Below, one piece after another: positions 1 through 5,712 of a DNA stretch of 5,712 nt (positions are counted from its first letter, which is position 1; each line of letters opens with the position of its first letter). Location: the IMG/VR virus record IMGVR_UViG_2541047691_000020, positions 1 through 5,712 of that record; one strand, 5' to 3'. The DNA comes from a virus (Duplodnaviria > Heunggongvirae > Uroviricota > Caudoviricetes). Under the pieces are notes generated by a model. It made no database searches and was not told the origin of the DNA. It was given only the letters and a program-made list of their open reading frames with translations. The position numbers and the translations under genes were made by a program.

Positions 1-537
1 ATGATGCTTACCCTAGACGAGATAGGTCAATCTGTACGTAACAATATCCAGTTGATTATTGATCATGTCGGCTTACCTCTTGCTGTTGGTCCGCTCAGTG
101 ATGATGATTACAAGATTCTGTGTGGTGGCTATGGTGAGCTTGAATGGGACTATGCGTTAAGCACCTATGGCAACTCCAGAGAAAAGTATGAGTTCTGCAT
201 AAAACTTGTTCAGCAAGGTCGGGTTCAGGGAATACCATCAGGAGCAGCAATTTGTGTTTATGGGGTTGAAGAAAACATCTTTCGTATCCATATGATCGAA
301 AGGTTTTCTAGAGAAGATGAATCTCACCCATTGAAAGGGCGCATGGTTTTACTCACTCTTATGAGTGCTTTTATATTTTGTAAAGCTGTTGAATGTAAAG
401 TTGTCCACATTGTAGAGCCAGTACCAGAACTGGTGCAGTATTACGAGTCTTTTGGTTTCCGCATGGAACAGTGCGGTTATGTGATGTCTGCAGTCATTGA
501 TGAGCTGCAGGATATCTTTCTTAAATTTGCTCAGTAG
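1..537 (+). CDS. Hypothetical protein with GNAT-fold-like (N-acyltransferase superfamily) motifs; N-terminus coincides with the window edge, so the true start is unverified
   Basis: 178-codon ORF from ATGATG at 1-6 to TAG at 535-537. The C-terminal half shows a GNAT-like pattern read by eye: 'HPLKGRMVLLTLMSAF' (P-loop-like turn then helix), 'KVVHIV' (strand), 'PELVQYYESFGFR' (helix ending in GF). It is on the opposite strand to the prophage operon and looks AT-richer (roughly 37-42% GC sampled by eye). No homology search was possible. Confidence 0.55.
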   Translation: MMLTLDEIGQSVRNNIQLIIDHVGLPLAVGPLSDDDYKILCGGYGELEWDYALSTYGNSREKYEFCIKLVQQGRVQGIPSGAAICVYGVEENIFRIHMIERFSREDESHPLKGRMVLLTLMSAFIFCKAVECKVVHIVEPVPELVQYYESFGFRMEQCGYVMSAVIDELQDIFLKFAQ

Positions 538-550
538 GTATAGACGAGAA

Positions 551-574
551 GGGTCTACAAATTGTAGGATACCC
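551..574. repeat. Imperfect palindrome with a perfect 13-bp core, ctacaaAttgtag (555-567), flanked by gggt/accc
   Basis: Base-by-base check: 555-560 ctacaa pairs with 562-567 ttgtag around centre A561; the outer gggt (551-554) pairs with accc (571-574). Confidence 0.6.
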
Positions 575-642
575 GTCCAGATTACCTTAAAGGTACATCT
601 ATGGCAGTCGTTTTGTGCTTAAACTACTAAGAAACGATGTCA

Positions 643-663
643 CCAATCGACATGATCGATTGG
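643..663. repeat. Perfect 8-bp inverted repeat with 5-nt spacer (ccaatcga-catga-tcgattgg); contains a GATC site
   Basis: 643-650 ccaatcga is the exact reverse complement of 656-663 tcgattgg. No T-tract follows, so it is not a terminator. Confidence 0.6.
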
Positions 664-679
664 CATAAGTTAGCTAAAC

Positions 680-689
680 AAGCTAGCTT
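680..689. repeat. Perfect 10-bp palindrome aagctagctt, with a nearby ttagct partial copy at 670-675
   Basis: The sequence is self-complementary over 680-689; it lies 45 bp upstream of the small-ORF start. Confidence 0.5.
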
Positions 690-733
690 TAAAGAGAGGG
701 TTAGAGACGCCTTTACTGTCTCGGGAGTTTTCT

Positions 734-907
734 ATGAAAGATCAAAAAGCAACCAAGCCACAGGTTAAGTTCGACACAATGAAAGCATTCGCAGGTATGG
801 GTGCTGCTGTTGAAGTTCTGATGAAGGCTGCTCCTAATGCGTTCACTCACGCTACTGTCTCTGGTAAAGAGCAGCAGGGTAAGCTTCGTCGTCGCAAAGC
901 AGCATGA
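734..907 (+). CDS. Small hypothetical protein, 57 aa (MKDQKATKPQVKFDTMKAFAGMGAAVEVLMKAAPNAFTHATVSGKEQQGKLRRRKAA); below the ORF-track length cut-off
   Basis: ATG at 734 is preceded by GGGAG (723-727) with a 6-nt spacer. The frame is open to TGA at 905-907 and is followed 20 nt later by a strong intrinsic terminator. It has an amphipathic central segment and a basic C-terminal tail (KLRRRK). No family recognised. Confidence 0.5.
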   Translation: MKDQKATKPQVKFDTMKAFAGMGAAVEVLMKAAPNAFTHATVSGKEQQGKLRRRKAA

Positions 908-926
908 TCATAGCTGGTGCTTTTTG

Positions 927-956
927 AAAACCCGCCTTTAGGCGGGTTTTTTCTTT
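927..956. terminator. Rho-independent terminator at the convergence point of the plus-strand cassette and the minus-strand prophage operon
   Basis: Perfect 10-bp stem aaaacccgcc (927-936) / ggcgggtttt (941-950) with loop ttta. On the plus strand it is followed by ttcttt, giving a U-rich run of about 10. On the minus strand the same hairpin is followed by only the 4 U of the stem, so it is weaker there. The stop codon of the minus-strand gene (955-957) sits in the T-tract. Confidence 0.8.
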
Positions 957-1236
957 AGTGATGTTCTTTGCCCTTCTGTTTGCCTGTTCTGACCTGTTCC
1001 CACTCGATACGTCCTTCTTCTCGTCTTTTGTCTATGTATTCCGCAAGATCCTGAATATTGATGCAACGTTTTGCTTTTTGTGATGTGCCGATGCGATATG
1101 TTGGAACGGGCAACTTACAAGCGTTTGCTTTTGCTTCTGCCGTGGCTGGACTCATGCCAAAGTACTTTTGGCTAACTGCTGAGAGTTCAATGTTAGGGGT
1201 ATTGAATTCAGCCATCAGTAAAAACAAGGTGTTCAT
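955..1236 (-). CDS. PrtN / excisionase-like small DNA-binding protein (putative recombination directionality factor or regulator), 93 aa from the ATG at 1236
   Basis: The track ORF 955..1263 begins with GTG at 1263. The in-frame ATG at 1236 is preceded by GGAG with a 6-nt spacer, so it is preferred. The sequence 'LLMAEFNTPNIELSAVSQKYFGMSPATAEAKANACKLPVPTYRIGTSQ' resembles the PrtN/phage excisionase-like HTH family as far as I recall. It is the last gene of the leftward operon, directly before the terminator. Confidence 0.6.
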   Translation of the reverse strand: MNTLFLLMAEFNTPNIELSAVSQKYFGMSPATAEAKANACKLPVPTYRIGTSQKAKRCINIQDLAEYIDKRREEGRIEWEQVRTGKQKGKEHH

Positions 1237-1272
1237 AATTTTCTCCATCAAAACCGGCTGCACCCGGGAAAA

Positions 1273-1845
1273 TCATAATTCTGTGCTGGTGGCAGGAATT
1301 AATTTCTGCCAGATAGCGGAAACATATTTTGCCTGATGACGAGCATCAGCCAGGGCGTTGTGCCGTTCGCCATCGAAAGGCATGTCCATTTTGGGGTCGA
1401 ATCCGATGGAACGCCCAAGCGTAACGATCGTGCGTACATCGTGGTCATTCCAGTATGCCCACGGGCAGATTTGTCCTGCTCGCTCATAAGCTCCACGTAA
1501 AATTACGTTGTCGAAGGTGGCCCCGTTACCCCAGACTTTTAAATATTTCGTATTGGCTGCGTGCCGGTTAATGAAATGATTTAGTTCTGAGAGAGCATCG
1601 CTGATCGACAAAGTATCATCAATACAGATTGCAGCTCGTGCTTCAGGGCTTTGTTTCAACCACCACAGGATGGTATCGCCGTCAGGTGTAGCTCCTTGCC
1701 CCATAGCACTTTCCAGGCTAACAACCGTATAGAATTCTTGTCCGATGTCTCCGGTTTCTGGAGTGAAGAACACCGCGCCAATGGAAACGATCGGTGCATC
1801 CTTATTTTTCCCCATCGTCTCAAGGTCGATCATTAAGTTGTTCAT
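1273..1845 (-). CDS. DEDDh-type (DnaQ-like) 3'-5' exonuclease, phage accessory type; 190 aa from the ATG at 1845
   Basis: Exo I motif 'MIDLETMG', Exo II-like 'WGNGATFD', Exo III 'HNALADARHQAKY' (H-x4-D). The track start at 1848 is GTG; the adjacent ATG (1843-1845) has AGGAGG 7 nt upstream. The start overlaps the upstream stop as TGATG. Confidence 0.85.
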   Translation of the reverse strand: MNNLMIDLETMGKNKDAPIVSIGAVFFTPETGDIGQEFYTVVSLESAMGQGATPDGDTILWWLKQSPEARAAICIDDTLSISDALSELNHFINRHAANTKYLKVWGNGATFDNVILRGAYERAGQICPWAYWNDHDVRTIVTLGRSIGFDPKMDMPFDGERHNALADARHQAKYVSAIWQKLIPATSTEL

Positions 1846-2417
1846 CACTTCACCTCCTGCGGTGGTTCCGGTAATTTCATCCAGTGGGTTGCCTGCTCAA
1901 TACCATTACCCGGCTTAATCGTTGCATCTCCGCGCCGAAAGGTGCTTCCGGTATAGCGTGCGGAGCATATTAGCGGTTCAACCAGAGAGCTATCGAAATT
2001 CACCGAAATAAGCACGTTCTGATTCTTTTCCGGCATTCGCTCACTACAGCTTATCCAACTATCCGGAATTACCGGAGAGTTGCCCGATAGCGCGTTCTGC
2101 AGTCGCTCCAGTTTCACGTATTCCTGAACCCTGTTTCCGTCGCATGCCCGAAGCCATTGCGCAGCCTTTTGCGCATCAGTATGAAAGGCACAAGTGCGTC
2201 CGTCATCAAATTGCATTTCGTAAAGGTCAGCAACCTGTTCAAAGTGCGTTTGTGGCAAGTTGTAAGTTTGGCTTACAGGTTCTGCTTCCAGCGATGCCAG
2301 AGCAATTCGTGCCAGTTCTTCCGCTTCTTCTGCTGGCAGTACAACGTTGCTACCAGGTCCGTATGTTTCGCGCCACTGCCTGATTGTCAGCAGTCGCTCT
2401 TTGGTAATAGTGGTCAT
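1845..2417 (-). CDS. Phage protein with C-terminal DUF551-like domain (Ead/Ea22-region family)
   Basis: 190-aa ORF with an ATG start and AAGGA about 9 nt upstream. The C-terminal 'WISCSERMPE...WMKLPEPP' matches the DUF551 pattern (W-I-S-x-x-x-R-L/M-P-E ... W-x-x-L-P-x-P) from memory. The N-terminal half is acidic and helical. Confidence 0.75.
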   Translation of the reverse strand: MTTITKERLLTIRQWRETYGPGSNVVLPAEEAEELARIALASLEAEPVSQTYNLPQTHFEQVADLYEMQFDDGRTCAFHTDAQKAAQWLRACDGNRVQEYVKLERLQNALSGNSPVIPDSWISCSERMPEKNQNVLISVNFDSSLVEPLICSARYTGSTFRRGDATIKPGNGIEQATHWMKLPEPPQEVK

Positions 2418-2692: not shown

Positions 2693-3229
2693 TCACTCTC
2701 CTTTGATGCGAATGTCAGCGACGCGTAATGCGTGTTCCAGGTCAATCAGGTAAAGCCAACTGCCATTTTCTTTAGGTATCATGACATGTCGCTCATCTGC
2801 ATTTATCGGGTGTCCATATCGAAGGTCGTAGCGAGTCGGTAATTGAACTTCCCGCGCTTCCAGTTCAGCAATACGCTTGCACCCATCAGAGATAACTCCC
2901 TCGTAATACTCGCGCTGCTCGTTGAGTTTTGATTTTGCTGCTTCAAGCTCAACGAGCAGCTTCCCAACCGTAAGCGCAATATCCTCGTTCTCCTGGTCAC
3001 GGCGTTTGATGTATTGCTGGTTTCTTTCCCGTTCATCCAGCAGTGCCAGCACGGTTTCTGGTCCGTTCAGAAATTTGAAGGCGTTGAGCGCATCAATATC
3101 CACACCGTAATCTTTAAGTTCCTGTTCACTTAACAAATCATCATCAGCTGGCAACATTAACAGGCGTTCCATTGCCGGAATTGCACGTTCTGCCGCCTCA
3201 CGCAGTGCCTGATAGTCAATATTGCTCAT
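2693..3229 (-). CDS. Ea22-like coiled-coil protein (lambdoid 'ea' region)
   Basis: 178 aa with an ATG start. The central region is rich in heptad-like E/K/L/R runs ('ENEDIALTVGKLLVELEAAKSKLNEQREYYEGV...IAELEAREVQL'). The N-terminal 'MSNIDYQALREAAE' resembles Ea22-like prophage proteins from memory. The ORF is flanked by tight stop-start junctions. Confidence 0.7.
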   Translation of the reverse strand: MSNIDYQALREAAERAIPAMERLLMLPADDDLLSEQELKDYGVDIDALNAFKFLNGPETVLALLDERERNQQYIKRRDQENEDIALTVGKLLVELEAAKSKLNEQREYYEGVISDGCKRIAELEAREVQLPTRYDLRYGHPINADERHVMIPKENGSWLYLIDLEHALRVADIRIKGE

Positions 3230-3530: not shown

Positions 3531-3943
3531 TGGTTGCCTCCTTTACGAAGCTGGGCGGCGAACTCGTCGCATACGTGCGTTAAAGAGCAAATCTGGATAG
3601 CAGGATGCTCGCGCAACAATTCAACACCCTGCGCACGTACTTCAGCCAGGAAAGCGTCGGTGGCTGACATATTTCCTGTTGCCTTCATGGCCTCCAAAAT
3701 AACCAGAACGCCATCTCGCCCAACCAACACGGAGATAATCTCAGTGTTGTCGCCAACAACCTCACAGAATGCCTGAACAGCTTTACGAGCCAGCTCATTC
3801 TCCGCCGCCAGCGCCGCGCACTTGGCCTCCGCTTCAGCAAATTTACGCACCAGATACTCAGCATTTGTTTCATTCACTTTCAGATCTCGTGGTACACATT
3901 TCCCGCGAAGAAACCCTTCCATTTCGAAAACATTCATGCGCAT
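3527..3943 (-). CDS. Hypothetical phage protein, 138 aa (positional equivalent of yfdS)
   Basis: ATG at 3941-3943 has GGAG 8 nt upstream; a second in-frame ATG at 3935-3937 forms an ATGA overlap with the stop of the HD-domain gene. The protein is Ala/Glu-rich and helical. The length differs from K-12 YfdS (about 120 aa as I recall), so no symbol is given. Confidence 0.65.
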   Translation of the reverse strand: MRMNVFEMEGFLRGKCVPRDLKVNETNAEYLVRKFAEAEAKCAALAAENELARKAVQAFCEVVGDNTEIISVLVGRDGVLVILEAMKATGNMSATDAFLAEVRAQGVELLREHPAIQICSLTHVCDEFAAQLRKGGNQ

Positions 3944-4470
3944 TTGCGTAACTCCGATAACTCGTTAAAACGTTCCATAAACATCCCGTAGGCATGGCTC
4001 GGAGCCAGTGGAATCACGTTGAACATCTCTGTTGCCGGGATGCCTTCCAGTACAGGCCAGAAAGAGCCATCATCAAGCCCGAGATCGCGACGTTCGGTTG
4101 CCAGCATGATGAGATCGGCATATTTCACGGGTGTACTCATAACTGGTGGTAACCCGTATTTCTCACGGATTACGGCGTCTATTTTTTCTTCCATCCGTTT
4201 ATAGTCAGGAAGAAGGCGTTTCAGTGGCGCCGGGATGTCCTGGCAATACGCTTCTGTTGCATCATGCATTAACGCTTCAAAAGCAAATTCCTGCGGTACC
4301 AGTTGGCTGCAAAGCACCGCATGTTGGGCGACGCTGTAGAAATGTGAAAGATGTCCTGCAAAGCGACAGATATTTGAAAGAGAAACCGCGATATCGTTAA
4401 TAACGATGTCGTCTTTATTTATCCTGTCATAATAAAAATGCTTCCCGGAAAAAGTTTTAATAAATGACAT
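3934..4470 (-). CDS. yfdR: HD-domain phosphohydrolase, YfdR-like (5'-nucleotidase-type HD protein of KplE1/CPS-53-type prophages), 178 aa
   Basis: HD signature: 'SVAQHAVLCSQL' (first His), 'EALMHDATEAYCQD' (HD dyad plus downstream Asp). The track start (4497) is GTG; the ATG at 4468-4470 has GGAG 7 nt upstream and gives 178 aa, which matches the length I recall for E. coli K-12 YfdR. A YfdQ-like 274-aa gene is immediately upstream. Confidence 0.8.
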   Translation of the reverse strand: MSFIKTFSGKHFYYDRINKDDIVINDIAVSLSNICRFAGHLSHFYSVAQHAVLCSQLVPQEFAFEALMHDATEAYCQDIPAPLKRLLPDYKRMEEKIDAVIREKYGLPPVMSTPVKYADLIMLATERRDLGLDDGSFWPVLEGIPATEMFNVIPLAPSHAYGMFMERFNELSELRKCA

Positions 4471-4563
4471 TTTGTTCTCCACGTATATGCGCTGCACCGC
4501 GCTGAATTCTGGTAAAAGGAAGCCCTCACCATCTGGCGATTATTGAGTCAATTACGTTTCCAT

Positions 4564-4585
4564 AAATGCCCCCGCAGGGGCATTT
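4564..4585. other. Perfect GC-rich stem-loop (9-bp stem aaatgcccc/ggggcattt, loop cgca) in the 100-nt gap between the yfdQ-like and yfdR-like genes
   Basis: Checked base by base. On the minus-strand transcript it is followed by only UUU then AUGG, so it is not a canonical intrinsic terminator. Confidence 0.5.
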
Positions 4586-4597
4586 GCAGTAATGAAA

Positions 4598-5422
4598 TCA
4601 GGCGGTGAAAGTACCAATAAAGGTTTCTACTTTGCTGTCTTTGAATTTCTCAACAAGCAGATCACGAAATTCGTTAGCCATTTCTTCCTGCACCGCTTCC
4701 AGCTGAATAATGCGCAGAACCAGTACAGGACGATCACCAGTGATAATGCTGAGGCGTAATTTAAACGGACGTTCTTTCAGGCCTTCAAACGGAACGCATT
4801 TAAACTCAAATGCTACTGGCATAATGTCTTTGGTTTTCGCTTCGACAGACTCCATCAAAGAGCGTTTGCCGCTGAAGTCATTATCTTCAAAATCAGCGGT
4901 CTGGTTTGCTTCAATCGTGATTTTACGGACTGCCGCAGCCGCTTTTGTTGCCTTAATAGCGTCACCATTAGCATCAAAGCCCACAAGATAGTCGGCCCAG
5001 TCTTCAATCCATTCTGCCAGTGACTTCTGGGAGTTACGCTCGCCATTAACAGACAGCAGGGCAGAGAACGGTGCTGTCTTTTTCAGTTTGAGAGTGGCGG
5101 TGTTATCTGCGTGACCTGGTTCATCAATAGTACCCAGGTTAAGCACACTGATGGCTCGCATATTATCGGCATCGATAAAGCAGCGGGTGCCTTCATCTGC
5201 AAGATCTTTAGAATAACGGGTAAAGTCATCGATGCTGGCAGTGGAAAGCGCACCACGGAAACGGAAGCGATTTAAATTAAATTTTTCCAGATCATGAATG
5301 CGGAAATTCTCAGGCAATGCCACAGCATCGGCACCAATCTTACTGATAATTTCATTAACACCCTGAGCAGAAATAAGGGCATGGATTTGATTAATTGCGG
5401 TTGCGTCTAAGTTCTGAGACAT
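4598..5422 (-). CDS. yfdQ: YfdQ-like uncharacterised prophage protein, 274 aa
   Basis: ATG at 5420-5422 with GAGGA about 7 nt upstream. The 274-aa length and the immediate downstream 178-aa HD-domain gene match the yfdQ-yfdR arrangement of E. coli K-12 CPS-53 as I recall it. No catalytic motif recognised. Confidence 0.75.
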
Positions 5423-5487: not shown

Positions 5488-5712
5488 TTAATGACCTGCT
5501 GCGCGGAGTTTTCCGTCAGGTTCACCGGCAAGAGTCAGTAATTGTCCCTGGTCTTCCTGCAGAATAGTCAGGCGACCACCGCGATTGACATACATCGGCG
5601 TTTCGGTGGTGTCTTCTTCGGAAATTTTCCCGCGGTTAGTCGGGCGAACATATGAGAGTTTGTGTTTGATTTTCACACGGTTCTCATCAAATGGTTCGAT
5701 TTCCAGGTTGAG
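5488..5712 (-). CDS. 3' end of an upstream phage CDS that continues beyond the right window edge (partial)
   Basis: The reading frame is open from the window edge (5712) to TAA at 5488-5490. The ORF-track start at 5676 is GTG with no convincing SD, and the internal ATG at 5595 also lacks an SD. A 65-nt AT-rich gap separates it from the yfdQ-like start. Confidence 0.45.
   Translation of the reverse strand, partial: LNLEIEPFDENRVKIKHKLSYVRPTNRGKISEEDTTETPMYVNRGGRLTILQEDQGQLLTLAGEPDGKLRAAGH

Follow-up and report, generated by a model that had tools for sequence, protein, structure and literature searches.

A probable RdfN-type recombination directionality factor in the att-proximal arm of a dusA-associated lambdoid prophage

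In lambda-type modules, int and xis stay together in the prophage. A leftward operon that ends in a small excisionase-like gene with no integrase beside it raises the question of where the integrase and the attachment site of the element lie. Both parts of this picture, put forward in the original prediction, held. In the window, by which we mean the whole 5,712-nt stretch of DNA analyzed here, neither the list of open reading frames (ORFs) nor a Pfam search revealed an integrase, and the genes that follow the excisionase-like gene (734-907 and 1-537) are on the opposite, plus strand. The window matches the E. coli PMV-1 chromosome at every one of its 5712 nt (0 mismatches, 100% identity) and is 97.7% identical to phage mEp460 (NC_019716) over the 69% of its length that aligns. 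Among 5426 complete E. coli genomes, 741 match at least part of window positions 1-1400, and 358 cover at least 80% of that interval.

We conclude, with high confidence, that the window is the left, att-proximal arm of a mEp460-type lambdoid prophage, that a tyrosine integrase specific for dusA inserted this prophage in the 5′ end of that gene, and that the 93-aa PrtN-domain gene of the window encodes the RdfN-type recombination directionality factor (RDF) of this prophage. The arrangement of dusA elements with RdfN has already been described, and mEp460 is already annotated with int and an "excisionase"; neither is new here.

The PrtN-domain gene and its family

The minus-strand gene block runs unbroken from 5422 down to 955 and ends, as had been proposed, in a small excisionase-like gene (PF11112, PHROG 1300). 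The features of the window that bear on the argument are as follows.

1..537, plus strand: cargo gene, 178 aa (177 from the second ATG), PHROG 4350, function unknown
538..733, plus strand: spacer of the cargo cassette, 196 nt, intergenic
734..907, plus strand: 57-aa cargo ORF, PHROG 2741, with a GGAG Shine-Dalgarno motif
926..951: GC-rich hairpin with an 11-bp stem between the convergent genes
955..1236, minus strand: rdfN-type gene, 93 aa, PrtN domain, final gene of the early-left operon
1273..1848, minus strand: 3′-5′ exonuclease gene (Rv2179c-like), PF16473 at E=4e-75
within 5422-955, minus strand: DUF2303/YfdQ gene
within 5422-955, minus strand: HD-type 5′-deoxynucleotidase (YfdR-like) gene
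within 5422-955, minus strand: Ea22-like and DUF551 genes

Within the leftward operon, the exonuclease gene directly precedes rdfN, with a 36-nt gap to the rdfN ATG. Further upstream, an ead/Ea22-like gene (2693-3229, minus strand) is annotated by PGAP in PMV-1 as a pseudogene that lacks its C terminus, yet in the window it is an open ORF of 178 aa. It overlaps the next ORF (2428-2745) by 53 nt, and this overlap is probably a mosaic junction. Minus-strand positions 3934-5422 and 5488-5712 hold homologues of yfdR, yfdQ, and yfdP of KplE1/CPS-53.

The terminal ORF (955-1263, minus strand) could encode 102 aa from a GTG at 1263 or 93 aa from an ATG at 1236. Judged from sequence, the ATG is almost certainly the true start, since a GGAG motif lies 6 nt upstream, PGAP chose this codon, and nearly all homologues, drawn from several genera, begin MNT.FLLMA; the upstream GTG is probably not used. 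The 93-aa protein matches Pfam PF11112 (PrtN) above the gathering score, with 81.7 bits (cutoff 24.2) and E=4e-23 over positions 1-73 of the 74 in the profile, and matches PHROG 1300, "excisionase", at E=1e-39. Searches of NCBIfam and PADLOC returned no match. With P0027, an RdfN-type protein of 76 aa from V. cholerae, the window protein shares 61% identity (E=4e-33). On its contig, the gene for the V. cholerae protein lies between a FUR-family (zur-like) gene and an MpsA-like relaxase, and the contig sequence indicates a putative SGI1-like dusA island.

Searching the sequences of solved structures with the 93-aa protein gave no match even at E=10. We therefore turned to an AlphaFold2 model built from 19 homologues (pLDDT 89.4), which shows a small helix/strand DNA-binding core and, C-terminal to it, a long helix (residues 61-91). 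When this model was used in a Foldseek search, P2 Cox ranked first with a weak E value of 0.077. The predicted fold thus appears nearest to P2 Cox, RdfS, and other excisionases or Xis proteins, which agrees, together with the kinship to RdfN, with the excisionase-type identity first assigned to the gene.

In Vibrio, the PrtN-domain ORF was named rdfN by Rivard et al. (2021; PMC8409611), who found that its deletion abolishes excision and that Int and RdfN alone are enough to excise a mini-element inserted in E. coli dusA. The 93-aa protein shares with RdfN the PF11112 domain, homology to the RdfN of Vibrio SGI1-like dusA islands and, in PMV-1, a place in an element at the dusA 5′ end that has a dusA-specific integrase and carries rdfN apart from int. 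By analogy with Vibrio RdfN, these features support a role for the 93-aa protein in excision as an RDF.

A different role is suggested by the name of the family, which comes from the pyocin activator PrtN of Pseudomonas: the protein could be mainly a transcriptional activator, with some other factor serving as the RDF. Farrugia et al. (2015) left the role of the PrtN homologue open (PMC4482086), and several RDFs, among them P2 Cox and TorI, also regulate transcription. We nevertheless regard this reading as improbable. RdfN is required to excise a dusA element, and Int is the only other protein needed (PMC8409611); the 93-aa gene occupies the xis position of lambdoid phages; mEp460 has a Q-type antiterminator for its late genes; and no other excisionase-like gene is annotated at either prophage end in mEp460 or PMV-1. 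A dual role, as both RDF and transcriptional regulator, is possible. With the protein taken as an RDF, "PrtN family" labels at the end of early-left operons in E. coli lambdoid phages should read "excisionase/RdfN".

Position of the integrase and the junction in dusA

In mEp460, the genes are ordered tail fibre, dinI (minus strand), integrase (minus strand), a 340-bp gap, gp23, gp24, and "excisionase", where gp23 corresponds to window positions 1-537 and gp24 to 734-907. In the PMV-1 chromosome, the left neighbor of the gp23 equivalent is the host gene zur, and the dinI-integrase pair lies ~40 kb to the right, beside dusA. The integrase there is a 365-aa tyrosine recombinase (PF00589, E=1e-20) that adjoins dusA and is divergent from it, with its start 88 bp from the annotated dusA start. 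From its target site and architecture, we infer that it belongs to the dusA-specific (DAI) family. Integrase and RDF genes thus sit at opposite prophage ends, the layout reported for IntS and TorI of KplE1 (PMC2951348) and the one that the original prediction had favored.

The same dinI-int ... cargo-rdfN layout is present in Lys8385Vzw and phiSTEC1575-Stx2k, and PhiR40_1 has the same cargo-rdfN end. A DinI-like gene (locus L003, 15449-15697, minus strand) was directly downstream of int wherever that end was inspected (mEp460, PMV-1, Lys8385Vzw, the Stx2k phage, and the AH02 replicon), and the two genes may be co-transcribed.

Three strains, AH02, CT01, and CX04, contain both a chromosomal copy and a circular replicon deposited as a "plasmid" (NZ_CP081704.1, NZ_CP081794.1, and NZ_CP081716.1). 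The replicons are 43.7 kb in AH02 and CT01 and 37.7 kb in CX04, and are probably excised or replicating phage genomes caught by assembly. In the AH02 replicon, dinI is followed by int, a dusA 5′ fragment, cargo, and the PrtN-family gene, which is the predicted attP configuration. The circular forms show that excision or circularization happens in related E. coli prophages, not which protein directs it.

To locate the prophage edge, we aligned the flanks with prophage-free E. coli, as had been suggested, and the junction fell at a single coordinate in dusA. Left of attL, 217 nt match the empty site without a difference, as do 900 nt right of attR, and the two flanks abut there. A genome-wide search with the junction region gave the same result: prophage-free genomes match up to the same break and then run into dusA. 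The four attachment sites are as follows.

attB, prophage-free strain FDAARGOS_1301: ...ATTGCCCCGATGCTTGAC TGGACG...
attP, mEp460 and a circular replicon: ...ATTGCTCCTATGCTCGAT AGGATG...
attL, PMV-1: left side host, right side phage
attR, PMV-1: left side phage, right side host

An imperfect 17-bp core, ATTGCyCCkATGCTTGA, is present at attL and attR over the dusA codons for IAPMLD. At the mismatched positions the host type is kept in attL and the phage type in attR, confining strand exchange to the shared segment ATGCTTGA. This crossover segment lies 145-152 bp left of window position 1 (locus L002, 8849-8856), so that the window is placed exactly, as the left arm of a dusA-integrating lambdoid prophage whose edge is ~150 bp beyond it; inward from attL, the first phage gene is the 178-aa gene at 1-537. 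The phage arm provides dusA with a new 5′ end, MPEKTGAYWSSRFSIAPMLD, joined in frame to host WTDRH..., and the native dusA 5′ end, displaced, remains beside zur in PMV-1. Of the landmarks sought in the flanks, the direct repeat was found in the form of the imperfect core and the integrase at the far end; a tRNA scan around the junction found none. Insertion is in a protein-coding gene, dusA, rather than in a tRNA.

These features are those of the elements surveyed by Farrugia et al. (2015), whose integrases insert prophages and islands in the dusA 5′ end, between 21-bp semiconserved att repeats and with an element-borne replacement for the dusA 5′ end (PMC4482086). In that survey, 60 of 94 dusA islands (64%) carried a prtN homologue (PMC4482086). 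Here, too, semiconserved direct repeats lie in the dusA 5′ region and the element supplies the new 5′ end.

The phage-borne dusA 5′ end is 88% identical to that of K-12 dusA (L003 16945-17048; L002 8795-8857; L006 3170-3280; L010 1656-1717). Its native counterpart, displaced in PMV-1, is a different and shorter allele. In strains with the PMV-1-type allele, zur and dusA are adjacent, without the K-12 genes yjbL and yjbM. We considered whether yjbL/yjbM might be what is left of a dusA element; K-12 has no displaced B2-type dusA fragment next to zur.

The position of the integrase also bears on whether the plus-strand cassette was inserted into a lambda-like attP-int-xis module, in which case the prophage would have int immediately left of the window. 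In linear mEp460 and in the circular replicons, int is indeed found on the minus strand 340 bp left of the cassette, so that the cassette does separate it from the excisionase gene in the circular or virion genome. The left end of the PMV-1 prophage, however, is flanked by zur and the displaced dusA 5′ fragment, int occupies the opposite end, and joining the flanks restores the empty site exactly, which places attP between int and the cassette. An integrase directly left of the window on the minus strand is therefore a feature of the excised form only, and reflects this position of attP rather than a lambda-like int-xis unit. We give the inserted-cassette reading very little credence. Should the window derive from a phage genome that had not integrated, which is possible, the gene order would still be int-attP-cargo-rdfN. 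That the att site or prophage boundary falls inside 538-955, an interval with non-coding DNA and hairpins adjoining the last gene of the phage operon, has next to no probability, since 538-955 is made up of the spacer, the 57-aa gene, and the terminator, positions 1-955 are phage DNA present in mEp460 and the circular forms, and host homology stops 145 bp left of position 1 with no tRNA; it was the other location initially considered, just left of the window, that proved correct.

The dusA-integrated arrangement, with attP between int and the cargo and rdfN genes, has the consequence that integration separates int from rdfN.

Terminator and cargo between attP and rdfN

The excisionase-like gene had been described as abutting a terminator. 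The hairpin at 926-951 is real. Read on the plus strand, it has an 11-bp stem, a ΔG of -19 kcal/mol, and a U6 tail, and 0 of 200 shuffled sequences folded as well (z -4.3; about -4.3 to -4.6 over the two strands). On the minus strand, the ΔG is -16.2 and the stem is followed only by UUUUC and then AAAAAG. Since the U-tract (UUUUUUCUUU) is on the plus strand, the hairpin would be primarily a canonical intrinsic terminator for the convergent plus-strand cargo genes; for the leftward operon, to which it was first assigned, it would be a weak terminator at most. In sister phages with other cargo, a different hairpin and T-run occupy the equivalent position in each, facing the rdfN stop codon. The spacer at 538-733 also folds better than shuffled controls (z -3.96) and contains a perfect palindrome, CCAATCGA-N5-TCGATTGG, at 643-663. 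An Rfam search matched no family in the whole window, the spacer included.

The content of the interval between attP and rdfN differs among related phages.

Window: 178-aa protein and 57-aa gene
Lys8385Vzw: Panacea-domain protein, 139-aa partner, and the same 57-aa gene
phiSTEC1575-Stx2k: DUF4065 protein and 182-aa protein
PhiR40_1: YafO-toxin pair

As judged by these comparisons, the slot appears to be a variable site of cargo exchange. Mosaic break points map to ~721 and ~985 of the window. Homology with Lys8385Vzw and SKA5 begins at ~721-724, just upstream of the 57-aa ORF, and the break at ~985 falls inside the last ten or so rdfN codons, where the C-terminal tail differs between variants (93 vs 90 aa). 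In mEp460, the 57-aa ORF (734-907), the hairpin, and rdfN are conserved together.

Neither cargo protein matched NCBIfam, PADLOC, or Pfam (Pfam to E<=5). Homologues of the 178-aa protein are present in many genera of Enterobacterales. Its AlphaFold2 model (pLDDT 93.5) had 320 matches in the PDB at E<=1e-3, and the best 50 of the 320 were almost all GNAT acetyltransferases, suggesting that the protein is a divergent acetyltransferase with the GNAT fold. The GNAT toxins AtaT, TacT3, and KacT were among the top 20, indistinguishable from ordinary acetyltransferases. One could propose that the slot serves as a swap site for accessory cassettes, with toxin-antitoxin-like pairs in the sister phages and, in the window, an undescribed, prophage-expressed protein that acts as a solitary GNAT toxin or as an effector in defence or anti-defence; we consider this specific proposal doubtful. 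As a variable cargo site, the slot may nonetheless be a useful place to seek prophage-borne accessory genes.

Regulation and comparison with known systems

The layout suggests how excision might be controlled. Integration leaves rdfN and the two plus-strand cargo genes at the zur-side junction and puts dinI and int ~40 kb away on the dusA side, where dusA also receives its substitute 5′ end from the phage. Since the leftward block lies downstream of a gene for an HTH+Peptidase_S24 repressor, inactivation of the repressor should result in transcription of the early-left operon, with RdfN as its last product. RdfN would bind and bend arm DNA and, together with Int, drive attL x attR excision while blocking re-integration. 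Transcription of the cargo genes, which converges on rdfN, would stop at the hairpin at 926-951 and so not enter rdfN in antisense. As int is absent from the leftward transcript in the prophage, Int would be made from its own att-proximal promoter, which must lie in the ~180-bp phage arm between the start codon and the attR core. We found no sigma-70 consensus promoter for int in the attR arm and none for the cargo genes left of the window, and pL was not located. Both the SOS/repressor control of rdfN and the int promoter are thus what we infer.

Within the ~180-bp phage arm of attR, the heptamer GGGAACC occurs three times within 50 bp of the int start, and the attL arm has one copy and a degenerate one, 89-100 bp left of the window (clusters: L001 8685-8917; L003 16877-16911; L002 8900-8917). 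All 4 exact copies in the 23.9-kb mEp460 locus fall within attP. Over the whole locus the count of 4 is not above chance (mean 2.3), and only the clustering in attP is suggestive. We consider GGGAACC a candidate Int arm-type site, which is more likely than a site for RdfN. The candidate sites overlap the stretch that has to contain the int promoter. Autoregulation of int by Int and/or the RDF, as for intS of KplE1 (PMC2951348), is a speculative possibility.

The closest comparison is with the RdfN of IMEVchUSA3 from V. cholerae, also a small protein with a PrtN domain (PF11112), encoded far from int in an element at the dusA 5′ end. The two differ in expression and size: rdfN of IMEVchUSA3 is behind an AcaCD-responsive promoter, whereas the window gene comes last in a lambdoid early-left operon, and the window protein, at 93 aa, has a 17-aa basic C-terminal extension. 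Rivard et al., who noted that dusA elements lack xis next to int, asked what drives rdfN in prophage-like members (PMC8409611). The position of rdfN as the last cistron of a repressor-controlled early-left operon would be a plausible answer. From the DAI elements and mEp460 there is no essential difference; all have the dusA 5′ site, semiconserved repeats, a new 5′ end, and the prtN homologue, and the cargo between attP and rdfN varies among members.

KplE1 (CPS-53), like HK620 and Sf6, also has its integrase and RDF genes at opposite ends. As in the prophage described here, the int start faces the att site, so that the int promoter region must overlap the recombination arm, and int and the RDF gene are not co-transcribed from one induced promoter. 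The early-region genes yfdR, yfdQ, and yfdP, as well as the split int/RDF topology, are common to both prophages. KplE1 differs in its target and RDF, the argW tRNA and TorI, in place of dusA and PrtN/RdfN; of the IntS/TorI module, only the split topology is shared. From the winged-helix RDFs of the lambda Xis and P2 Cox class, the window protein is set apart in having no detectable sequence similarity to any solved structure. Finally, in lambda-type modules xis overlaps or adjoins int, and attP lies beyond int. The window rdfN differs: it does not overlap int, attP lies between the two genes, and the protein ends in a long helix.
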